In this document: positions 8,175-58,335 of the stretch, one piece after another | Layout: each line of letters opens with the position of its first letter | How positions within the stretch are numbered: position 1 is the stretch's first letter | Assembly: GCA_964016885.1 (NCBI GenBank) | Contig: OZ024745.1 | Span: 68,448,001 to 68,512,000, forward strand | DNA length: 64,000 bases | Origin: Eledone cirrhosa | Lineage: Eukaryota | Direction of reading: 5' to 3' | The notes under the pieces: model-generated | The model's database searches: none | Told to the model about the DNA's origin: nothing | The model's input: the letters and a program-made list of their open reading frames with translations, nothing else | Made by a program: the position numbers and the translations under genes

Positions 8175-8204
8175 GACGTTTCGGGCATAAGCCCTTCATC
8201 AGGA
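8175..8204 (-). ncRNA. Minimal hammerhead core (stem I not recoverable)
   Basis: Reverse strand reads CTGATGA-a-gggc ttat gccc-GAAAC-GTC, with palindromic stem III ACGT. The 3' side runs into (CA)n. Confidence 0.55.
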
Positions 8205-8585: not shown

Positions 8586-9258
8586 TGTATCATATGTTAT
8601 TGCTTTCTTCGTATTCCCACTGCATTTTCAGTTACCTTAAATAGCAACTACACAACCATTTCTATTCTCCATATATTTCATAATGTGTTTCGCTGTAACC
8701 ATTCTTCTCTCCCCTTCTACCTTCCTATTTCGCCACTTTCTACTCTCACCCCTCTTTCTTCCCCTCCCATTCTCCCTATCTACTCTTACCCCCACTTTCT
8801 TCCTCTCCCTTTCTCCCTCTCACTTTCACCCCCTCGTCTGACCGTTTAGCAGTTCTCTTCTCACTTACAACTGCGGTGATCAGACGTGTGTCTTTTCTCT
8901 CGATTACTCGGTCTCGAACTTAAGTTCTATTATCGAGTGGTCTTGGATTTCCTACCTATAGTTGCTCGCACATTGCTCGGTTTGTTGTGTTTTTTTTCGC
9001 TGTTTTGTTACTGTTTTCTCTTTTCTTCCCTTTTGCTTTCCTTCCCTCCCTCCTTCGTTTTCCCTATAACTTATCCAGTCATTGACGCCCTGAGGTGAGA
9101 TTTCTTGTCTTTAAAGCGTAGAAATATCCTAGATCCTCAGTAGACAACTGATGAGGAAAATCCCCCCCCCCCCGTTCTTGCTTTCTTCGAATTCCCACTG
9201 CATTTTAGTTACCTTAAATAGCAACTACACAGCCATTTCTATTCTCCATTTATTTCAT

Positions 9259-9262
<4 letters not shown>
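8586..9262 (+). mobile_element. Non-coding partially tandem repeat, family J (monomer ~580 nt), carrying a permuted hammerhead
   Basis: 8600-8683 is repeated at 9178-9260. A homologous copy lies on the minus strand at ~13660-14170. Ends in (TA)n. Confidence 0.8.
9085..9154 (+). ncRNA. Candidate non-circularly permuted hammerhead (family J)
   Basis: acgc-c-ctgagg-tga-gatt-TC-ttgtct-ttaaa-gcgt-a-GAAA-tatc-ctagat-cctcag-t-agacaa-CTGATGA. Confidence 0.65.
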
Positions 9263-12132: not shown

Positions 12133-12337
12133 GTGTATATATATATATGTATATATATTTATATTTATATTTATATATATATATATATATACATATGTGT
12201 ATATATATAAATATATTTACACATATGTATATATATATATATATATATATAAATATATATATATTTGGAAGATCACTGATGAAGGACTAATTCTATTCAT
12301 ATGTAACCCATGTGCAACCACGCAGCACTCCATTTTT

Positions 12338-12377
<40 letters not shown>

Positions 12378-12661: not shown

Positions 12662-12668
<7 letters not shown>

Positions 12669-13148
12669 AAATGGGGAGAAGAATACTGCATGGTTGCACA
12701 TGGATAACATGTTATAAAATGAGTCCCTCATCAGTGATTTACCAACGGTCATAGGTATTTCATTGCATTAAAAATCATATACCTCACGTTGGCGCAATAA
12801 TAACTAAAATAAGTTATTAGGACAATTAAAACGCGTAAAGCGAGTGAGACAAGTAAACAACACAGAGGAAAGCTAACCGAAGATAGGAAAGACACAAGCT
12901 ACATAGTTATTCTATCAGTATAAGCTGGGTGAATATATGAGCGAGTAGAAAATAGACCTTTCGAGATGAATCCAATGTAAGAAAGAAGGAAAATCGTTAA
13001 CATCGCGAACGGGGGGAAGTGAGAAGGGGAGAAACCGTGAGTGAGTGAGTGGAAGTGTGAGGAAGAGGTCAGTAGAGAGAAAGTGTTAACTGACATGACA
13101 GAGGGGACGAGAGAAAGTAAGAGAAACAGAGAGAACGGGGGAGCAGTA

Positions 13149-13226
<78 letters not shown>

Positions 13227-13565
13227 AAATCGCAGTTTAGGTAAATATATGTGAAAAAATGGGGAGAAGAATACTGCATGGTTGCACATGGATAACATGT
13301 TATACAATGAGTCCCTCATCAGTGATTTACCAACGGTCATAGGTATTTCATTGCATTAAAAATCATATACCTCACGTTGGCGCAATAATAACTAAAATAA
13401 GTTATTAGGACAATTAAAACGCGTAAAGCGAGTGAGACAAGTAAACAACACAGAGGAAAGCTAACCGAAGATAGGAAAGACACAAGCTACATAGTTATTC
13501 TATCAGTATAAGCTGGGTGAATATATGAGCGAGTAGAAAATAGACCTTTCGAGATGAATCCAATA
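12662..13565 (-). mobile_element. Family I non-coding tandem element (~1.5 monomers, period 588) with two permuted hammerheads
   Basis: 12662-12977 is repeated at 13250-13565. Motifs at 12728-12797 and 13316-13385. (TA)n on both flanks. Confidence 0.85.
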
Positions 13566-13659
13566 TATATATACATATATATATATGGAAATAAATGGAA
13601 TGTTAGGTATATTTTATGTTGTGGGTGTGTATATATATATATATATATATATATTAAAA

Positions 13660-14170
13660 TATATGGAGAATAGAAATGGCTGTGTAGTTGCTATTGAAGG
13701 TAACTTAAAATGCCGTAGGAATACGAAGAAAGCAAGAACGGGGGAGGGGAGTTTTCCTCATCACTTGTCTACTGGGGGTGTCGGTCGGATATTTCTTCGC
13801 TTTAAAGACAAGCTATCTCACCCCAGGGCGTCAATAACTGGATAAGTTATTGGGAAAACGAAGGAGGGAGGGAAGGAAAGCAAAAGGGAAGAAAAGAGAA
13901 AACAGTAACAAAACAGCGAAAACAACAACAACAAACCGAGCAATGTGCGAGCAACTATAGGTAGGAAATCCAAGACCACTCGATAATAGAACTTAAGTTC
14001 GAGACCGAGTAATCGAGAGAAAAGACACACGTCCGATCGCCGCAATTGTAAGTGAGAAGAGAACTGCTAAACGGTCAGGCGAGGGGGTGAAAGTGAGAGG
14101 AAGAAAGTGGGGTAAGAGTAGATAGGGAGAAAGGGAGTGGAAGAAAGAGGGGTTCAGAGTAGAAATTAGC
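13660..14170 (-). mobile_element. Family J copy, with a mutated permuted hammerhead at 13758-13831
   Basis: Reverse complement of ~8740-9250. Core reads GTGATGA and the site reads GC instead of TC. Confidence 0.8.
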
Positions 14171-14171
14171 G

Positions 14172-14223
<52 letters not shown>

Positions 14224-15720: not shown

Positions 15721-16235
15721 AGCCTTTTGTTTATCGATTCGTGGAGAAAAAGAAAGGTTAATTTGACCTGAAATCACAGAGCCGGAAAAAATAACCACCA
15801 CAAGGCATGTGTCCGACACTCTAACGATTGTACCAATCGATCACCTTCAGTCGATATAATCATAAAAAATAGACGACCTTGAGCTAACGTTATAAATCAA
15901 TATGACGGTAGTTAAAATGTTGAAATATTGACAGTGGTGAGGAGGAATAAGAAGACTTTATAAATGTTGTAATTAATAATTAACTGGATTTCCAACTGAA
16001 ACATTGTATTGTTGGATGTAACAACATAACTAAACCCAAATTCAGGGCATTCACACTCCTGTTGGAGGAACCCCGCCCTGACTAGCCTCCACCACTTAAC
16101 ATTTTAGTCATGTTTTTATGAGTATAGCTGTGTTCACCACGCTTGGCTAATTGCAGTTTGGTGAAGCTATTTTACACATAGTTGGGGTGAATGGCCGTTG
16201 ACTCTGAAGAGTCCATCCACCCTTTTAATAACATA

Positions 16236-16378
16236 ACTGTTTCTACTTTTGGCACAAGGTCGGCAATTAGCCCAGTGTATTACTGGTACTTTATTTTATC
16301 GACCCCGTAGGATGAAAGGCAAAGCTAACATTGGCGGGATTTGAACTCAAATCATAAACGTCCTTAACTATGCTGCAA
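16236..16378 (-). mobile_element. tRNA-derived SINE, 5' truncated
   Basis: Reverse match to the consensus seen at 45410-45586. Confidence 0.8.
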
Positions 16379-20950: not shown

Positions 20951-23195
20951 TTCAGGTTATCAATAATGTAGTGATAATATATCGTTACGTTAGAGATGAA
21001 CAGCGTACGTGTAGGTTTGCTCAACGAGTATAAATTATATTCCGGAGAAAATGTATAAAAGATGAATATAAAATGAAAGTGCTTTTTTTAAAAAGGAATT
21101 TATTAGGTATTGACATATGTTTCTGTAACAGACGGAATACCTATGTATCGCTGCTTGCGTAATCATATAATGTTAGCAAGTATTCGATAGCAAATGTATA
21201 ATCAGTTGTCACTTCTTCAGAGATTTTGGATAAATTGGATAAAATCAGAAAAATTGAAGTATTTATATTAGTAATAGAGGAAGAAGAGAGGGGATAGTAT
21301 ATGACAGATGGTAATTCAATTTACTGCTAAACAAGTATATAAAGGGTTTCTAATGAGAATACCATGAGTAAATGGTTCATTTTATCTAAATAAGAATTTT
21401 TGGGAGTGCCAATTTTAATCTATACTTGACCAATTGGACAGTGGACAGGGCTGGTCATTTGGTGTAGTAGTATTAATTATAAAGTGTCAATTGGGGAAGG
21501 GGGAGATTTCGATTGTTACTGAATAACATCAATGCTAGTAGCCAGCTGGTATATGCATTAGGGAATTGAATTAAGAAATCAGAAATCTCATTTTATCTAT
21601 AGCAGTTTATATTAAATGGTAAATAATAGAAGAGTTGATAGAATTAAGACTAATAGAGAATGTTAATATCTATTTTGACAATCAAACGCTATTATATCCC
21701 ATTTAAAGTGAAATTGTTGGTTATTTTCACGCACCTGCCAAACCTTGTCTGCGAGTGTTGTTACATAACGCTGGTTTTCATGTTTTATCGAGTAACGATG
21801 TCTATAAAGGCGTGATTTGAAGGAGGTGGCTGTAGATCCCACATAGTACCACTTCTGTCTATCCGATTCGATAGTACATTTGTATACGATGTTGCGTTCA
21901 AGACACTGATTGTTCAACGGACACATTCCTGGTTGGACACAGTTACAATTATAATTTTGCGTTGTTGTATTGTCATGGATGGGTTGTTGAGGTTGCTTAG
22001 GTAGGACAGGATGTTGTTTGTTGTTTTGTGATGTTATAGCTAATGTTTTACGTGTATTGTTATGTGTTGGAAGGCGTTTATACAACCGTTTTGCGTTAAG
22101 CTTTTTTATATGTTGTTCAATATTAGGGGCGGTTGAATATGAAAGTCGAATAGTGTTAGGGTTTAAGATTTTATTATATTTATGTGATGTTGGAAAGTGT
22201 TTTTTAACTAATCGAAAGAATTGTGAGGGTAGATTGGTTTTAATAGAGTTGTTATAGACCGGGTTATACCAAATATACTCTTTACATCGCCTTCTATTTG
22301 GTGGTGTGCGACTATTATTGTGTCTATTGCGGTAGTGTATGTATGGTGGTGATTCTGTGTTATTTCTACTCCTATGGGATTTATTTTGGGTGTTTTGGTG
22401 ATCTTCGACTATATACTCTATATTATCTAGGTGTCCGGCTTTCCTAAGTGCATCATCATAATATTCGGCATGTTCTTTGAAGGTTTGTTGGTTGGACGAC
22501 AGGCGGGAGATTCTAAGAGAAACATTTCTAGGGATGGATTTAATTATAGAGAGTGGATGGTTAGAACTCGTATTTACATATTTAAGGTTCTCATTTAGTT
22601 TATGGAACGGTTTAATCGTATCTGTATTGAGATTCAAAGTAACATCAAGGAAATTGACCTCTTTGAGGTTATATTCAAATGTAATATTTAATCCTAGTTC
22701 CTTAAAAAGCTTTCTGATATTTTTACGCATCCTTTCTAAATGCTGGTTATTCATATGCTTAACTAATAGGAGCGCATCATTACGGTAGATTCCACCGTGG
22801 AGATCCTTGAATTTTCCTTGTAGTCTGTGGGTGATATAAATTCCCACAAGATCTGTTACTTCCGCCGAATCATTAGAACCCATAATAATATCAAAATTAG
22901 AAGGTCTATCTTTGCGAACCCAGTAGCTATCATCGAATTTGACTATAGTTTTCCTCGCTTCCATAATAATTTTAATTTCAGCATCCGTAAGGTCGGAATT
23001 AGCCTTAGCGAACGAAAGAGCTTCATGTAGAGTATCAGGTAAAATTGAGGAATAATATTCATCAATATCAAACTGAATAAATTTTGATTTTTTCTTATCA
23101 GTAATGTTATTAAACCATCTTATTGCTTCATGAGTGTTACCCCATAGTTTAATTTCTACTTTAACCTTAACTTGGGGGATAATTCTGTCTAGTAT
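20950..23195 (-). mobile_element. 5'-truncated Penelope-like retroelement (Naiad-like), RT + GIY-YIG endonuclease
   Basis: ORF 21663-23324 has FIQFDIDEYYSSI, MGSNDSAEVTDLVG, YRND (YRDD variant), NFLDVTL, WYNP, NTIRLSYST, CNC..CPL..C, IVYKC..YYVGST..FKSRLYRH. The first ~45 aa are flanking or SINE sequence. A degenerate HHR lies in the 3' UTR at ~21109-21223. Confidence 0.92.
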
Positions 23196-23303
23196 ATATA
23201 GTAGTGAATATATACACTGCAGTTTTAAAGAAGGGAATATAAGAATTAGTCTATATAAACAAATGAGTATATATAAAGTAGTGAATAATATAATAAAGTA
23301 AAT

Positions 23304-23490
23304 AATTGTTTCTACATATGGCACAAGGACAGCAAATTACCCAGTACATTACTGTTACTTTATTTTATCGACCCTGTAAGGATGAAAGGCAAAGTTAACC
23401 TCGCCGGGATTTGAACTCAGAACATAAAGGGGCGTAACTCTATGCTACAAAGTATGGCGTCCGACTCTCTACCGATACTGCCAATCCACC
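23304..23490 (-). mobile_element. tRNA-derived SINE
   Basis: Full-length reverse match to the SINE consensus (ggtggattggcagtatcggtagag...agaaacaatt). Confidence 0.9.
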
Positions 23491-24110: not shown

Positions 24111-24129
24111 ATATATATATATATATTTG

Positions 24130-24945
24130 ACGCGTTCTTCCTCACTTTTCGTTGCTTCACCATCTTTGTTTGTTTACACTCTCGCTGTTCCCTTTATTTA
24201 CGTGTCCCAATGACTTTCTTTAGCCGTTGCTCGCACCAACCGGATGTATATGGTCTTTAAAGCGAAGAAATACCGAGGATGGTTGGAAGATCACTGATGA
24301 AGGACCAACTTTATTCATATGTAACCCATTTGCAACCACGCAGCACGTTTATTCTCATATTTACACATATAATCCCCCGCTGTGACCCGTCTATTTCGTT
24401 CTTACTGCTTCCTCTTTCTCTGTATCTTTACCCTCTCTAACAGTCACTCTCTCTGTTAGTCTCTTCCTCACCCTTCACTCACTCTCTGTTACTACCTCTC
24501 CTCCTCCTCCTTCTTCCCGTTTGACCTGTGCGTAAGTCTTTTCTTTCGCACGCTTGGCCAGGCCGGTTCCCCTTTTTTCTCTCTCTCGTCTACGATTTCA
24601 CAGAACTTATGTTCACCGAATTCACGGACTAGACTCCTTCTTCCTCCCGTTTGACCTGTGCGGAATTACTTCCTTGCTCACATTTCAACCAGGTTTGAAG
24701 GTCTTTAATCTCTCTCGTTCACGATTTCACCGAACTTATATTCATGGAAATTTGGGACTTGACTCGTACTTCCTCACTTTTCGTTGCTTCACCCTCTTTA
24801 TTTGTTTACACTCTCGCTGTTCCCTTTATTTACGTGTCCCAACGACTTTCTTTAGCCGTTGCTCGCACCAACCGGAGGTATATGGTCTTTAAAGCGAAGA
24901 AATACCGAGGATGGTTGGAAGATCACTGATGAAGGACCAACTTTA

Positions 24946-24950
<5 letters not shown>
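24130..24950 (+). mobile_element. Family I non-coding tandem element (period 632) with two permuted hammerheads
   Basis: 24130-24319 is repeated at ~24760-24950. Motifs at 24231-24300 and 24863-24932. Confidence 0.85.
24863..24932 (+). ncRNA. Candidate non-circularly permuted hammerhead (best family I copy)
   Basis: tcgc-a-ccaacc-gga-ggta-TA-tggtctt-taaa-gcga-a-GAAA-tacc-gaggat-ggttgg-aagatca-CTGATGA. Confidence 0.75.
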
Positions 24951-26585: not shown

Positions 26586-27662
<1,077 letters not shown>

Positions 27663-27721
27663 CAAATCGTACACCTTATTAAGTAAGTCCAACGCTGCTT
27701 CTTATAATGACTTCAAATTTA

Positions 27722-28770
27722 GGGCGGTGGATTGGCACCATCGGTAGAGGGTGGGCCGCCATGCTTTGCCACAAAGAGTTACGGCCCTTTATGATCTGAG
27801 TTCAAATCCCGCCGAGGTTAACTTTGTCTTTCATCCTTACGGGGTCGATAAAATAAAGTACCAGTCACGCACTGGGGTCAATTTCATCGACTTTTCCCTC
27901 CCCCCAAAATTGCTGGCCTAGTGCCGATATAAGAAACCATAATTACTTCAAATTTAGGCATAAGGCCAACAAAGTTTAGTGGGAGTGGGGAGTCGATTAT
28001 ATTGACCCAGTATTTGACTGGTATTATATGTTATCGACTCTGAGTTCAAATCCTGCCGAAGTTAACTTTGCCTTTCATCCTTACGGGGTCGATAAAATAA
28101 AGTACCAGTAATGTACTGGGTAATTGCTTCTCTTGTACCAAAAGTAGAAACAATTATAGTTTATCGACTCCGGAAGGATGAAAGGCCAAGTTGACATTGG
28201 AGTGATATACCTCAGAATTTAAAGAGCAAGGAACAAATGCCACAAAGAATTTCATCTAACTCTCTAACGATTCTGTCAATCCTCCGCCCTAAATAATTGT
28301 TTCTACTTTTGGCACGAGGCCAGCAATTACACAGTGTGTTACTGGTACTTTATTTTATCGACCCCGTAAGGATGAAAGGCAAAGTTAACCTCGGCGGGAT
28401 TTGAACACAGAATGGCAAGGGCCGTAACTCTATGCGTCAAAGCATGGCGTCCGACCCTTTACCGATACTGCCAATTTCTGCTTTAGGTACAAGGCCAAAT
28501 ATTTTTGGGGAAAGGGAAAGTCAATTAAATCGCCCCCAGTGCATTACCAGTACTTTATTCGACCCCGTAAGGATGAAAGGCAAAGATAACTTCGGCGGGG
28601 TTAGATCTCTAACAATTGTTTCTACTTTTGGCACAAGGCCAGCAATTACGCGTACATTAGTGGTACTTTATTTTATCGACCCCGTAAGGTTGAAAGGTAA
28701 AGTTAACCTCAGCGGGATTTGAACTCAGTTCGTAAAGGGACGTAACTATGCTGGAAAGTATGTCTGACCC
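27722..28770. mobile_element. Cluster of ~7 nested or adjacent tRNA-derived SINEs in both orientations
   Basis: Repeated gcctttcatccttacggggtcgataaaataaagtaccag core and tRNA-like heads (plus 27722-27942 and 28040-28157; minus 28294-28475, 28614-28770 and others). Confidence 0.85.
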
Positions 28771-36167: not shown

Positions 36168-36282
<115 letters not shown>

Positions 36283-36882
36283 GGAACGAGTAGGACCTCG
36301 ACGGCTGAGCTCAAGCCGTTTCGTTGGCTAATTCTGGACTAAATGAACATTTTTATCCTGGTAAATGAATAGCCCAGCTTCTCAGGGGGTAATATTCCAT
36401 ATATGGTAAAAGTGATTGTCACAACGATTGGTCAAAAGTTTGTTGTTGAGACACATAATTCTATCATGGCATTTTGTGGAAGGAGGGGGTAGCTGAACTT
36501 GCCAGTAGAAGAAAGATGGAGAGGGAGTGGAGGAAACCCAGTCGTGCGTTGAAAGTGACGACTACAGCAGAATCCTAAGGATAAGAGGTCAAGAGGGGGA
36601 GGGAGGGAGGAAGTCGAAACAATAAGTAGATTTATATGGAGTAAATCTATATAGAAAAATAAGAATGTTAAAAATATAAAAAAACACAATTTCTGGTTAC
36701 TATTCCCCTACCACAATCATCAAATCTCTCACTAGACTATAGAAAAATTTAATAGGTGGGGCGGGATACTAAATACGAGATTGTAGTGAAAGAATTTTAT
36801 GAGTTAGTAGTACTCGGCCTAATCTATCTTACAATGACAAGTCAACAAGTAGGGGGCCTACAAATCTCCCCCTCCGAACCCT

Positions 36883-38871
36883 ATGCTCTCACCCTTCGAG
36901 AATGACCTTTTCCAACTGGTCAAGAGCATTAAATTCAAACCCAGACACAACAGATTCCTACAAAAACTCCGTAGCAACTTAACAGAGTATGATAACACCA
37001 ATGACATCATGGTGCACTCGGATAAAACTGTTAACCTCTACTTCGTCAACCCCGACAAATACCACACACTGATCAGGAGCAGCCTAAACTCCACCTATAA
37101 AAAGGCTAACCACTCATGCATCGAGGACATAAATCGAGATGGACAACAAATTAACTCCAGCCTCGGGGTCGCCGACCGCACGGAACCCCTAGACCCACAG
37201 ACTCCCTACTTCACACTGAAGGACCACAAATCCGATTTCGACCGTAAACCATCTATCAGGCTTATAAACCCAACGAAGTCCGACATAGGGAGAATCATGA
37301 AAAAAATCCTAGACCGCGTTATACCAAAAGTTAAGCAAAACGCCCAAGAAGTAATCTCATGGTTCAGCAATATGGAGGACAAACGAGACACAAAATTCAT
37401 CCAGTTTGACATAGAGAGTTACTATGCTTCAATTACCTTACCGCTCCTTACGGTCGCCTTGGACTTTGCCGAGACACTTGCGCCCATCACCGACCAGGAA
37501 AGAAATATCATCCTCCACACCAGGAAGACAGTCCTACTTTTTGACAACTCCAAATGGATAAAGAGAGCTCCGACTCCCCCTTCGACGTCAGTATGGGCGC
37601 GACGGATTCGGCCGAGGTCACAGATCTTATAGGATTATTCCTACTAGTTAAACTCACCGATATGTTTCCTGCATTTGGCGGTGGATTGTACCGTGATGAT
37701 GGGCTCCTTACCCTTAAAGGGTAACACCCCAGTAGTACAGACCGGGTCCGTAAACACTTAATCAGCTTCTTACGCGACTGGGGATTTTAAATAACCCTAC
37801 AAACGTCCCTAACCCGAGTAAACTCCCTGGACGTTACCCTTGACCTCGATAATGATCTGTACTACCCATACAGGAAAGCAAACGATAACCTGCACTACAT
37901 CCACCGCCGGTCAAACCATCCTAGAAATATCACCAATAACCTGGTTAAAAAACATCTTCCTCCGCATATCTCGTTTGTCCGCTAATGAGCAGATATTTGA
38001 TGAACATGCGCCTTATTACAACCAGGCCCTCAGGCGGAGTGGCTTCTGGGAGGAAATATCCTACTCTCCAGCTTCCATTAGCGGAACCATCAGGCGACAC
38101 CGCCGCTCACGCAACGTAACATGGTTCAATCCTCCCCACAACGCCGAGGTGACAACACCTATCGGAAAAATCTTCTTTAGGCTCATCGAAAAACACTTCC
38201 CACTACAACACCGCTACCACAACACAATCAACAAAAATACCATCAAACTCTCCTACAGTACCACACCTAACTTTGCACAAAACATCGTCTCCTCTAACAA
38301 CAAAAAACTCAACTCCTATGGAAGAAATAACCTAAATAGCAGTGGAGAGCCGACCAGGAGGTGCAACTGTTCTGATGGATCCATTTGCCCCCTCGACAAC
38401 AGATGCAGAGATCGTAATGTGATCTACCAGTGCAACGTGAGGACGGACACCTCCAAGAAAGCTTATATAGGATTAACCGCTTGTGACTTCAAGACCCGAC
38501 TATACCAACACAGACATACTTTCCGAAACCCGGCCCGGCGTCACGCCACTACACTTTCGGGCCACATCTGGGACCTTAAAGATAACAATACAACCTATAA
38601 TCTCACTTGGAGCTTACTGTCCAGAGCCAACTCTTACACGGGAGGACGCCGTCCGTGTAACTTAGGCTCGGAGGAAACATTACAAATGCTGTTTTCGATG
38701 GACCAACTCCTAAACAAAAAAGACGAACTGGTAACTGCATACAAACACAGATTGCGTAGGACTTACCTCGTACTCAAACCCCATAATGACCCGGGGGGGG
38801 GGGGGGTAGACGGGGGCTGTAACACCCCACTTGCCGACTTTGTAATGGGTAACCCCTGCTTACAAAGGTAG
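36883..38871 (+). pseudogene. PLE reverse transcriptase + GIY-YIG endonuclease, frameshifted
   Basis: TLKDHK..F..KPSIRLINPTKSDIG, FIQFDIESYYASI; a shifted frame gives FDVSMGATDSAEVTDLIG and YRDD (37689-37700) with TAA stops; then TWFNPP, NTIKLSYST, CNC..CPL..C, VIYQC..AYIGLT..FKTRLYQH. Confidence 0.92.
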
Positions 38872-45131: not shown

Positions 45132-45409
45132 CGTGATTTTTTTTGTCGTGTCTAGCAGTCATTAATAGAAACAGGTTCGTTCCCAGTTATAAATAGGTTA
45201 TAGTATTAGTTTCACAGACATGACAGTGTAGTTAAGTAGTAACGGCTATATAGGTTTGTAGAAATTATGAAACAAATAATAAACTAGTAAGTTCAAGAAA
45301 TGAAAATTTCATGTGATTGTTTAAGATAAATACAGTATGGGAGGGTTACTAGTTCTTGCCAAATTACAATATGTAATATATAGAAACTTCATTATTAAGG
45401 TAAACAATG

Positions 45410-45586
45410 GGCGGTGGATTGGCAGTATCGGTAGAGGGTCGGACGCTATGTTTTGACGCTTAGAGTTACGGCCCTTGCCATTCTGAGTTCAAATCCCGCC
45501 GAGGTTAACTTTGCCTTTCATCCTTACGGGGTCGATAAAATAATGTACCAGTAATACACTGGTTAATTGTGCCAAAATTAGAAACA
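45410..45586 (+). mobile_element. tRNA-derived SINE with 19-bp target-site duplication
   Basis: attattaaggtaaacaatg at 45391-45409 and 45587-45605. A-box-like tggcagtatcggtaga and B-box gagttcaaatcc. Confidence 0.93.
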
Positions 45587-45929
45587 ATTATTAAGGTAAA
45601 CAATGTTTTATTTATGGAAATAGAAACATTGTCAGGTGAGAGAAAAAAAGGCGTTTTTAATATGGAAAGTTATGTATATTTATAGATAGGGGAAGCTCAA
45701 GTAGGAAACATTATAGGATATTAGGAAAGAAAATATGGACATGTTTAGCTGGACGTATGATAACACACACGAGAGTGGTTGTGTGTGTGTGTGAGTGTGT
45801 GAGTGTGTGTGTATGTGTGTGTGAATTATAAGCCTTTAGGTCGTTCATGTCAAGAGAACAACTATTCCAACTCCTTAAGTAATCTTCAAACAATGGAAAT
45901 ACTAAATTACTAAAGATGTTTTTTGTAAT

Positions 45930-47520
<1,591 letters not shown>

Positions 47521-48231: not shown

Positions 48232-48729
48232 TAAATATACACGGGTGTGTATGATTGTGTATAGAAGATTATATTAATAAAAGGAATTCCAACTTTGTCT
48301 GATTTACTCGTTTTATTTACAATCCTTTAAAATTTATAATGGTATTAGAATGAAATAGTATGGTAGAATATTAAATGTTAAGTGTTAATTGAACAAGTAC
48401 TTTCATGCTTTCGCAATCTTCAGGTACATAATGTGTGGTGACAGTCAAGTTTGCAATTTTCAACTGTAATGAGATGGGTAAATTTTGTACCTTATATACA
48501 GTGAAAAGTGGCTCCAGAATGCTAAATCTTGCAAACTGTATTTCGACCAATCGGTGTGTAGTTTGACTGAATTACTAAAGCTGATTGGTTTAGGCGTCAC
48601 GGTTGGTTGAGCATGTCTAACGACCACTAATTGATCCTATCCAAAGCATCAATTGTTTTGCTATTTTTAGAAATGATGAAAATAGCATTTTCTAGTAATC
48701 ATCACCATCAACATCACTTTTATTATTAT

Positions 48730-48915
48730 TGCGGTGGATTGGCAGTATCGGTAGAGGCTCGGACGCCATGCTTTCCAGCATAGTTACGTCCCTTTACGAT
48801 CTGAGTTCAAATCCCGCCGAGGTTGACTTTGCCTTTCATCCTTACGAGGTCGATAAAATAAAGTACCAGTAATGCACTGGTATTTGCTAGCCTTGTGCCT
48901 AAAGTAGAAACAATT
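48730..48915 (+). mobile_element. tRNA-derived SINE
   Basis: Near-consensus full-length copy. Confidence 0.9.
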
Positions 48916-49596
48916 ATTATTGTTGTTGTTGTTGTTAGTGGTCGTAGTCGACATGGTCGTAGTCATAATCATAGTAGGAGTAATCCCCATTAATATTGTT
49001 CATTTAGCTTGGGTTTGAATTTATCAATAAAATTCTTTTCTTTGATTTTTCTCTTGATTTCACTTGGGCTGTGTAATTTGTAGAATGGGAATATTATAAA
49101 TATTCCCTGACCACATGTTGCTAGATGGTTACTTAGGGGTATCTGACGGAGATTTGGGTCTCTGATTTGCTGTCGGTGTACCCGTGCACGTTCCGATAGT
49201 GCATTTCCTGTTTGACCGACATATAGTTCTTCACATTTAATTCGGGCATTTAATGCAGTAAATTAGATTTCTGCTTTTGCAGTTCATATTTGCATTTGGG
49301 AATATTTTTCCAGTTTTTGTTTTCATATATTGACCGGCGTGTATGGATTGACATGTGCCGCATCGACTATCATTGCATTTAGATACAGTGAATGATTGAT
49401 CTTTGTTGTTAAGGTCAAACTTTGCTTTTGTTAATAATTGCTTCAAATTTTTCGGCTGTCTTTTACTAAGAGTCAAAGATCGATCTGTGATTAAGCCTTT
49501 TAATTCATTACTTTGAGCAATGATCGGTAGGTTTGCTTTGGCAGTGTTGAAGATATTCTGGTGACATGGGTTGTGTGTCATTATAAATGGTATGAC

Positions 49597-49777
49597 GGTG
49601 GATTGGCAATATCGGTAGAGGGTCGGACGCCATGCTTTCCAGCATAGTTACGTCCCTTTACGATCTGAGTTCAAATCCCGCCGAGGTTGACTTTGCCTTT
49701 CATCCTTACGGGGTCGATAAAATAAAGTACCAGTAATGCACTGGGTAATTGCTGGCCTTGTGCCTAAAGTAGAAACA
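49597..49777 (+). mobile_element. tRNA-derived SINE inserted in PLE coding sequence, ~17-bp TSD
   Basis: attataaatggtatgac at 49580-49596 and 49778-49794. Confidence 0.93.
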
Positions 49778-50147
49778 ATTATAAATGGTATGACCAGTTC
49801 TTGGTTTCTTCTTCCTTGGGTTGTCCTAAGTTGTTGTATAGGTATTTTCATAGCCCGCTGTATACCATTTTCTATAAGTAGAGATGGGTATTTTTGTTTG
49901 AGCAAACCAAAAATTCTCTTAGTTCTGTTAGGCGGGGCTGTGTGTGTGCGTGTGTGTGTGTGTGTGTGTGGGGGGGGGGGCATCGCGTAACATTCCATAT
50001 TTAGGTATCCGAAACACAAATCCTGTTTATTTAGTAATGTATATTTATTATAACTGTGAAGCTATAGCAGTGATGTGAGGGCCAAGAATTTTGTGATAGA
50101 ACAGGGCACTCGGGTCACTCGTTATGGCTTCACAACTATAATACACA

Positions 50148-50178
<31 letters not shown>

Positions 50179-50206
50179 GCACACACACACATATATATAT
50201 AATAAT

Positions 50207-50394
50207 AATTGTTTCTACTTTAGGCACAAGGCCAGCAATTACCCAGTGCATTACTGGTACTTTATTTTATCTACCCCGTAAGGATGAAAGGCAAATTCAA
50301 CCTCGGCGGAATTTGAACTCAGATCGTAAAGGGACGTAACTATGCTGGAAAGCATGGCGTCCGACTCTCTACCGATACTGCCAATCCACCGCCC
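50207..50394 (-). mobile_element. tRNA-derived SINE
   Basis: Near-consensus reverse copy. Confidence 0.9.
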
Positions 50395-50489
50395 TTATAA
50401 TAATAATACTAAAAGTGACGATTTGTTGTCTTCATTTCGTTTATTGAGTATCGGCGCGCCTTTCGCTATTGATCAGCTCAATATATATA

Positions 50490-56160: not shown

Positions 56161-57309
56161 TATGTGTGTGTTTGTGCGTGTGTGTATGTATGTCTGTGTG
56201 TATGTGAGTGTGAGTGTAATTTACATATGTATATATGCAATTATTACAGAATAAATTCTGAAGTGTTTCACATATTTTCCCAGTTTAATTACTAATCTGT
56301 ATTGCTATTTCTTAATTAGCTGTGTCATATTTGGAATTGTGGTGTACAAGCCCAACTTCATCAATAATTATATGTATGAACCTAAAGCTAGAGTTTGGTT
56401 GGTGTATCTGCAGATTTCTCATCAGTTCACAACAGATGTTTTCTTTTTAAATTTATCTTTAACATTATATTAACATCTACCGGTCAACTGATATCCACCA
56501 GTGTTTCAGCCAGATTGTCTATAGCTTAGGTTAAGGTCACTGGAACATTAATATGTCGAAGGATTTTGCACACAAAAGAATGTTTTCATGTAATCCACCC
56601 AGACTGTAGCCAAATTCTTATGTACACGATCTGAGGAATTCTCAGCCATGTGCTCATTTATTTTATGAGTAGGTTGTTTCTTTGATCAAACAATTGGAAC
56701 TCTCGTCGACGAAACCGATGGAGACACAACAAATATTTTTTGTTGGTGAGAGATCTAGTTAATGTTTTGTTTGCATGTGATGAACACCATCGGCTAATTG
56801 ATAATCTCCTGAAACATTGACTTCGGTGGGGTTTGGACTCATAACACAAAGAGCCGAACTAAATATTGATTTCTAATGTAAGCTCAAGGCAATCAAATTT
56901 TGGGTGAGGATGAAGTTGATTAACTCCAACCCTAGTACTTGACTGGTACATTATTTTATCGACTCCTGAAGGATGAAAGGTTTGAATGCAGAATGTAAAG
57001 AGCCATAAAAGATACCCCGATGGCATTTTACTTGACGCTCTAATAATTCTGCCAATCCACTACCCTTCCGCTGAAATAAACATTGCAAGGCATTTCGCCC
57101 GTTGCTCTAACCTTTCCGCCAATTGCCGACATATAATATCGTTAACAACACAATATTTAAATAGTCCGTTGACAGAGAGATTTAACATCAATGTTAAACA
57201 CTTATCTTAATGCGTTACAAAAAGATTAAGACGACTTTTGCAGGATTGGCGCTAATCTATGTAACATCGCATAATCCTTAGAGAGAAACTCTCACGTGCT
57301 TAGATAGAT

Positions 57310-57555
57310 AATTGTTTCTACTTTTGGTACAAGGCTAGCAATTATCTCAGTGTATTACTGGTACTTTACTTTATCAACCCCGTAAGGATGAAAGGCAAAG
57401 TTAACGTCGGCGGGATTTTAACTCAGACGATAAAGGGCCGCAACTCTTTGCTGCAAAAAGGCGGTGAAGTGGTTAGTGCTAAGTGCTATATGTCACAGTG
57501 TTCTGCAATCTGAGTTCAAATCTATCCGACATCAACTTTGCATTTCAACCAGTTC
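57310..57555. mobile_element. Head-to-head SINE fragments
   Basis: Minus copy 57310-57460 and degenerate plus copy 57460-57555. Confidence 0.7.
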
Positions 57556-57557
57556 GA

Positions 57558-58335
<778 letters not shown>

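Follow-up and report, generated by a model that had tools for sequence, protein, structure and literature searches.

A predicted hammerhead ribozyme of S-G-C strand order in retrozyme-like (TA)n insertions of Eledone cirrhosa

Non-LTR retrozymes have been described from metazoan genomes (Cervera and de la Pena 2020, PMC7229834), and their consensus lengths in vertebrates are given as 51-972 bp (Li et al. 2026, bioRxiv 10.64898/2026.07.22.740005). Among hammerhead ribozymes whose conserved blocks follow a non-circular order, type SGC was defined by the block order S-G-C (Eckert et al. 2023, PMC10085705); the accessible part of that study draws non-circular hammerheads from metatranscriptomes and metagenomes, and from the genomes of known organisms it gives none save one weak bacterial GCS candidate. 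Naiad PLEs favour (TA)n and form partial tandems, and according to the accessible part of their description a canonical hammerhead is absent, only the labels 'HHR_core' and 'half_core' being used, with 'half core' in eight cases (PMC8557442). Here we describe insertions of Eledone cirrhosa that share features with these systems. The reading that we consider probable is that they are retrozyme-like elements whose S-G-C fold, supported by covariation and predicted to self-cleave, was likely inherited from Naiads and is likely copied into (TA)n by a different PLE that is still active.

The window analyzed here is a stretch of 64,000 nt (assembly GCA_964016885.1, contig OZ024745.1, positions 68,448,001 to 68,512,000 of the forward strand). 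Self-comparison of the window gave four head-to-tail partial tandems with periods of 588, 632, 527 and 578 nt, in agreement with a first-pass annotation that had placed the last period at about 580. The family I insertion at 12665..13563 (minus strand) holds 1.53 monomers of 588 nt with repeats 99.7% identical over 311 nt, and both its fixed 3' end (12665) and its truncated 5' end (13563) lie on (TA)n. Two further family I insertions belong to a 632-nt subfamily (24127..24950, plus strand; 1.30 monomers, repeats 96.9% identical), with ribozymes at 24204-24305 and 24836-24937 and a 3' end on (TA)n about 16 nt past CUGAUGA, and to a 527-nt subfamily (26655..27497, minus strand; 1.60 monomers, repeats 96.5% identical), with ribozymes at 26716-26817 and 27243-27344. 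The family J insertion at 8586..9262 (plus strand) comprises 1.17 monomers with a period of 578 nt and one ribozyme at about 9057-9161, predicted to be cut between 9104 and 9105; its repeats are 85.7% identical over 99 nt in global alignment and 93% over 89 nt by blastn. One ribozyme per monomer, as had been proposed, was found throughout the window tandems. (TA)n runs flank three of the four on both sides and the 8586 insertion at its 3' end only, so that most are indeed bounded by (TA)n, and the earlier view that they hold no credible ORF was borne out: the only stop-free frames of at least 120 aa inside the four tandems were of 138 and 131 aa and largely low-complexity.

Other copies in the window are less complete. 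A second family J copy (13630..14176, minus strand) is shorter than one monomer and has its core C3 changed to G, and is likely inactive. A family I copy akin to the 632-nt subfamily (57833..58300, plus strand) has an internal deletion but an intact ribozyme at 58181-58282, a short 5'-truncated family I piece between (TA)n runs (12265..12355, plus strand) retains block C and the 3' end only, and an internal fragment of the 12665 subfamily with 90% identity (46061..46276, plus strand) is without ribozyme. The usual monomer of the 12665 subfamily measures about 531 nt; the period of 588 nt is a local variant that we attribute to an expanded (AG)n at 13149..13224 (plus strand). Similarly, the 632-nt monomer (24318-24950) contains a 150-nt stretch duplicated internally with 73% identity, which would account for its larger size. 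Across the tandems, monomer length ranged from about 500 to 640 nt, and the earlier description of these retrozyme-like elements as large is not upheld, their size being unexceptional against the range of Li et al. (2026). The window is about 28-fold richer in ribozymes (8 matches in 64 kb) than the genome on average (4.5 per Mb).

At the genome scale (3.0 Gb), a 411-nt query from the 12665 element returned 3,904 first-look candidates, and the 40 that were scored were 97-100% identical. An exact pattern of core blocks G and C matched at least 13,626 times versus none in the reversed control, a J-type pattern 842 times versus none in the control, and a 26-nt subfamily anchor 1,535 times. Most of 30 fetched loci of the 12665 type shared one end, equivalent to window position 12665 and corresponding to the 3' end of the CUGAUGA-bearing strand, and varied at the other; the differing 5' starts noticed in the first pass thus belong to a general pattern of scattered 5' ends and a fixed 3' end. 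We then measured 70 loci among the 100 anchor matches listed, of which 65 remained after removal of 5 duplicates. Insertion length ranged from 68 to 2,485 nt (0.13 to 4.7 monomers), with 44/65 no longer than one monomer and 21/65 above it; the span of 1.1-1.6 monomers stated before therefore describes the four window tandems and not the family. (TA)n stood at the 3' end in 59/65 and TA at the 5' junction in 46/65. The 3' end sits 114 nt past the predicted cut site in internal sequence of TA-like composition that passes into (TA)n, and in other subfamilies about 16 to 110 nt past the core. The predicted cut site was passed in 56 of the 65 insertions, twice in 11, and a 5' end fell within 4 nt of it in one; as 5' ends do not accumulate there, no direct sign of cleavage can be read from the insertions. 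A fixed 3' end with random 5' truncation is expected for target-primed reverse transcription of non-LTR elements and PLEs. The elements show PLE-type traits (a constant 3' end, truncation at the 5' end, partial tandems and insertion into a microsatellite) together with that of non-LTR retrozymes, namely dispersed, high-copy, non-coding tandem monomers with one ribozyme per unit, which supports the earlier classification as non-autonomous, non-coding, hammerhead-bearing, PLE-type insertions. Inverted head-to-head pairs of elements, as described for PLE insertions, were seen at L039/L040, L069/L070, L082/L083, L097, L098, L102, L104 and L109.

On the strand bearing CUGAUGA, the conserved blocks run cleavage site, GAAA, CUGANGA, which is the order of type SGC with crossing stems, within about 100 nt. 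Read from 5' to 3', the fold begins with X, the hairpin, Y, P0 and the 3' strand of stem III, which leads to the cut site; the 5' strand of stem I, Y', GAAA and the 5' strand of stem III follow, and then the bulge with GA, P0', the 3' strand of stem I, CUGANGA and X'. In the 3' copy of the 12665 insertion (12723..12823, minus strand), X occupies 12823-12820, the 8-bp hairpin 12819-12798 and Y 12797-12794, followed by the P0 5' strand (12792-12787), UGA and the stem III 3' strand (12783-12779), and cleavage is predicted between 12778 and 12777. The stem I 5' strand (12777-12772), a UUAAU linker, Y' (12766-12763) and GAAA (12761-12758) come next; after GAAA, the 3-nt bulge with GA precedes the P0 3' strand (12747-12742), the stem I 3' strand (12740-12735), CUGAUGA (12734-12728) and X' (12726-12723). 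The 5' copy lies at 13311..13411 (minus strand), with the predicted cut between 13366 and 13365. The term permuted ribozyme used in the first-pass annotation understated the case, the permutation being non-circular and accompanied by extra helices. An Rfam search of the window at gathering thresholds gave 0 matches, and in e-value mode only microsatellite-driven matches appeared among the 150 of 397 matches listed. HDV-like, pistol and twister classes were ruled out by strand order. Elsewhere, the core pattern matched 8 times in viral contigs, twice in metagenome contigs and never in prokaryote genomes; these 10 viral and metagenome matches are ascribed to chance because none forms stems I and III.

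Support for the fold comes from pairing and covariation. The CUGANGA and GAAA core is invariant or near-invariant in A1/A2, where its letters were partly imposed by the search patterns. The A15.1-U16.1 pair is kept in 33/35 diverse copies, and the cleavage triplet is ATA in 77, ATC in 27 and another in 3 of 107 copies, H17 being non-G. In a set of 64 copies collected with a pattern that left stem I, stem III and the GA positions free, at least 4 of 5 stem III pairs formed in 61 and at least 5 of 6 stem I pairs in 62. Among the 35 diverse copies, 90.3% of cells were paired versus 70.2% after shuffling (0/500), and double-sided changes affected 6/6 pairs of P0, 4/5 of stem III and 6/6 of stem I. 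An unguided mutual-information scan likewise ranked P0, stem III and stem I pairs at the top, at an effective number of about 12 sequences; the covarying cells trace to few independent lineages. By blastn, families I and J share similarity over 48 nt only, inside the ribozyme. Taking these results together, a hammerhead fold with stems I and III around the cut site is supported by covariation, and self-cleavage is predicted from it.

Where a canonical stem II would be expected, the strands after CUGANGA and before GAAA pair with each other through a single pair (10.1-11.1). Both were found to pair instead with an upstream bridging strand, whose X segment binds the strand that follows the core and whose Y segment binds the one that precedes GAAA, with an 8-bp hairpin between the two segments; a canonical stem II was rejected accordingly. 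We also considered, by eye, whether the 5' strand of stem I might instead pair with the sequence that follows CUGANGA, and dropped this option because it fails in other subfamilies. The resulting seven-helix model, fitted to 31 copies with family J scored in the register of family I (one base off for X), had 92.8% of cells paired versus 28-48% in slid registers. For a per-sequence test of X and Y, 26 of 171 copies that are without the hairpin were removed, and among the remaining 145, strict Y/Y' pairing occurred in 105, compared with a shuffled mean of 41.5. Y and Y' co-vary through three states, GCAA-UUGC (46/50), GCGA-UCGC (48/52) and GCGU-ACGC (10/12). In family I, X/X' is paired in 101/117 and 10.1-11.1 in 113/117, whereas family J is weaker, with X/X' full in 13/28, Y/Y' full in 13/28 and 10.1-11.1 in 11/28; several family J copies are old or truncated. 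Because the copies are kin, the X/Y counts reflect a few independent changes. We model stem II of family I as one pair that opens into a four-way junction.

On the other side of the core, stem III continues through a 3-nt bulge and a GA opposite UGA or GUA into the 6-bp helix P0. The tandem GA is present in 62/64 copies and the opposing A (1n) in 63/64, and position 2n is G in 18/35 and U in 16/35. A kink-turn consists of a 3-nt bulge followed by tandem G.A and A.G pairs between two helices, and the bulge and GA motif between stem III and P0 resembles this consensus and may be a kink-turn. The bridging strand and the kink-turn-like motif would hold stems I-III in hammerhead geometry despite the scrambled strands. 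One older family appears, by eye, to form the bridge without a hairpin. In older SGC families that carry GAAACCAU (L111, L112, L119, L123, L128, L130 and L151-L162), X and Y seem adjacent, which suggests a three-way rather than a four-way junction; several of these copies bear a short GGAC-N-GUCC palindrome past the core. In a further SGC-like family (L120, L144-L150), the G-to-C spacer is shorter (16 nt) and no P0 is obvious.

The fold might have been kept for a non-catalytic role, as a landing structure for a PLE RT or a site for a kink-turn-binding protein, with cleavage lost. Such a role would suit the non-canonical stem II and the read-through of the cut site by most insertions, whose 5' ends do not pile up there, but CUGANGA, GAAA, A15.1-U16.1 and a non-G H17 (ATA or ATC in 104/107) are kept across otherwise dissimilar families, and in loci selected by homology or anchor the core letters were not imposed by a pattern. 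We regard the loss of cleavage as very improbable, and retain a self-cleaving ribozyme as the preferred reading.

With a self-cleaving ribozyme, tandem copies would be transcribed and cut once per monomer at AUA or AUC, and the cut monomer would be ligated into a circle. A PLE endonuclease would nick (TA)n and the RT would prime at the internal TA-like site about 114 nt past the cut site, cross the ligated junction and stop at random to leave 0.1-5 monomers. From a linear monomer already cut by the ribozyme, such priming would produce no more than about 114 nt. Most insertions are longer, so their template ran on across the cut site, either as a circle closed by ligation, as a multimer left uncleaved or through a jump; we think the circle likely. 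Alternatively, no circle is involved and the tandems stem from uncleaved multimeric array transcripts or RT jumps, with a slow or conditional ribozyme. Loci of 4-5 units (L057-L060, L235) are possible array sources, irregular periods (445, 494-506 and 679) were seen, and SGC ribozymes that have been assayed are slow, at 0.007-0.13 per min (PMC10085705). In one chimeric insertion (L011:1492-2119), units of the 632 and 531 types are fused close to the 3'-end position, which points to RT template switching between subfamilies. Against this, divergence among the five L235 units is 0.4-1.2%, and each of them carries an allele seen in no other sampled insertion, a pattern that fits repeated copying of one molecule and is compatible also with a homogeneous source array, and circles have been documented for type I retrozymes (PMC7229834). 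We therefore judge a route without a circle unlikely and keep the ligated circle as the favoured template. The contrast between near-identical repeats within insertions and divergence between insertions, to which the first-pass annotation drew attention, holds in the window but fails as an argument: the closest copies of the 12665 element, which form the densest subfamily, differ by 1.73% within insertions (11 pairs) versus 1.89% between them (692 pairs), and the four window insertions diverge mostly because they belong to four subfamilies. In a nearest-neighbor test of 56 repeats, which is confounded by partial and inverted units, 29 were closest to their own insertion and 25 to another, with 2 ties.

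As to the enzyme, the window contains a decayed copy of a young PLE with a C-terminal endonuclease (36280..38871, plus strand, with an inverted 5' piece). Its family has 49,085 candidates in the genome, many stop-free, with frames of up to 805 aa, and its 3' ends adjoin (TA)n in 16/21. Since the Naiads of this genome are decayed, this young, abundant, (TA)n-inserting family is the likely mobilizer and enzyme source, although another PLE family may serve instead. Mobilization by a co-resident (TA)n-targeting PLE, as proposed from the first reading, is thus plausible in that such a family is available, although the monomers share no blastn similarity with it. The ribozyme, moreover, finds its closest match (by eye) in Naiad PLEs and not in the co-resident PLE, in which a separate, classic type I hammerhead was seen, by eye, at about 100 nt from the 3' end. 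That hammerhead (L276; inverted piece at 36280-36400) combines, by eye, an extended stem II with a UUGAGAA core, where U3-A8 replaces C3-G8, and thereby escapes a CUGANGA search. A frame of a second PLE family at 21663-23336 (minus strand; 557 codons) has RT along with a GIY-YIG-like C-terminal motif and is interrupted by a SINE; Pfam gave no family for eight window proteins, PLE frames included. Apparent classic type I cores, some in inverted pairs and all below the Rfam gathering threshold, also occur in other repeats at 8202 (minus strand), 25796, 30908, 31786, 40879, 46337 and 46830. An abundant 190-bp repeat with a B-box-like motif (16233-16378, 23299-23490, 27720-28770, 45409-45598, 48720-50400 and 57305-57460) is presumably a tRNA-derived SINE.

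Several published Naiad consensus sequences, in the part of the set covered and read by eye, carry an unusual layout, while a number of others were ambiguous. The 3' ends of two octopus Naiads have it in full, with X, Y, the hairpin and the kink-turn-like motif all present. In three Naiads of Acropora, S-G-C order is accompanied by X-hairpin-Y, P0 and the UUAA linker seen here too, and one squid Naiad has S-G-C order with P0. Five other Naiad 3' ends, at least three of them from nematodes, have complete stems in C-S-G order. The CSG hammerhead was previously known from two metagenomic sequences. In the present genome, one motif search and three protein queries found Naiad matches that are fragmentary or contain stops, the stricter first look of the Naiad searches making two of these results lower bounds. 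In twenty regions downstream of decayed Naiads, neither the ribozyme model nor the monomers matched on the sense strand; the Naiad link therefore rests on the published consensus sequences, and points to a shared architecture, not to a parent found in this genome. A Naiad-like pattern matched 62 times in the genome versus 3 in the control. Twenty of these loci comprised 8 of another inverted-repeat family, 1 chance-like and 11 SGC-like, and 20 longer upstream regions of such loci never held more than one isolated RT-like motif. The SGC ribozyme of L114 and L143 has a G block and kink-turn-like motif close to those published for octopus Naiads, but the 5.7 kb upstream contained none of the Naiad ORF motifs.

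These data also bear on whether a young autonomous Naiad-type PLE was missed, whose terminal repeats (pLTRs), truncated at the 5' end, would make up the tandems. PLEs form like partial tandems and Naiads favour (TA)n (PMC8557442), the fold resembles Naiad 3' UTRs as read by eye, and the Naiad searches give a floor. However, insertions that exceed one monomer continue into further copies of it, reaching 4.7 monomers, rather than into an ORF, and the Naiad matches of this genome are in the decayed state noted above. In addition, a sense-strand PLE or Naiad coding match joined to a ribozyme with no intervening (TA)n was found in 0/157 sampled loci (median 1.5 kb of upstream sequence covered; nearest coding match 688 nt away), so that the repeats are not consistently the terminal repeat of an autonomous PLE, the case that the first-pass annotation had named as contradicting its reading. 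We consider a missed Naiad-type parent improbable, and prefer non-autonomous elements that share the Naiad architecture.

If these comparisons are right, the SGC or CSG fold would likely explain why the Naiad clade was thought to be free of hammerheads, a direct answer to the published puzzle of Naiads proliferating 'without' them: standard descriptors are blind to these strand orders, and type I-III genome surveys of ribozymes and retrozymes would for the same reason undercount. Going further, and with slightly less than even confidence, we suggest an active new architecture, of SGC order, with stem II rebuilt by the bridging strand as a four-way junction and a kink-turn through which an L7Ae-family host protein could turn cleavage on or off. 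It would be standard in Naiads across phyla, as SGC in cnidarians and cephalopods and as CSG in nematodes, and would persist here in parasites with circular RNA that have outlasted the parental Naiads and turned to the enzymes of another PLE clade. More than 13,000 copies in an animal genome would give a biological context to the SGC type, which was previously without a known host. The four-way junction and kink-turn-like motif offer a testable structural answer to the scrambled topology and possibly a protein-controlled ribozyme, and the elements could serve to test the use of circular templates in PLE reverse transcription.

Compared with known systems, the elements are retrozyme-like with a new hammerhead architecture, as judged from the predicted fold. 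In the literature covered, which included PMC13725137 and few subscription journals, no non-circular hammerhead was reported from animal genomes or PLEs, nor a four-way-junction stem II; the alignment files in the supplement of Eckert et al. (PMC10085705) may contain SGC variants with similar helices. The elements resemble the non-LTR retrozymes that Cervera and de la Pena (2020; PMC7229834) described from metazoans in their non-coding tandem monomers with one hammerhead per unit, low GC, dispersal, proposed dependence on PLEs and a size within range, but those have a type I hammerhead and demonstrated circular RNA, whereas here an SGC type with extra helices is known from sequence. With Naiads they have in common (TA)n targeting, partial tandems and, by eye, the S-G-C layout of the octopus, Acropora and squid members; Naiads measure 3.4-4.4 kb and encode a GIY-YIG-RT ORF (PMC8557442), while the monomers are non-coding. 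In canonical PLE pLTRs, as seen in the young PLE of this genome, the type I hammerhead is likewise cut roughly 100 nt upstream of the element 3' end, which adjoins (TA)n, but its permutation is circular (C-G-S), its stem II is ordinary, and it is joined to an RT-EN ORF. By the type I definition of both retrozyme surveys, as far as accessible, the elements fall outside; they have the SGC order but not the helix set of HRIMA-1. With type SGC and HRIMA-1 (PMC10085705) they share S-G-C order, CUGANGA, GAAA, stems I and III and a short linker that follows the 5' strand of stem I. HRIMA-1, however, has a canonical stem II and a helix that binds the other sides of stems I and II, while the elements described here have a stem II of at most one pair with a four-way junction, P0 attached through a kink-turn-like motif, and more than 13,000 genomic copies.
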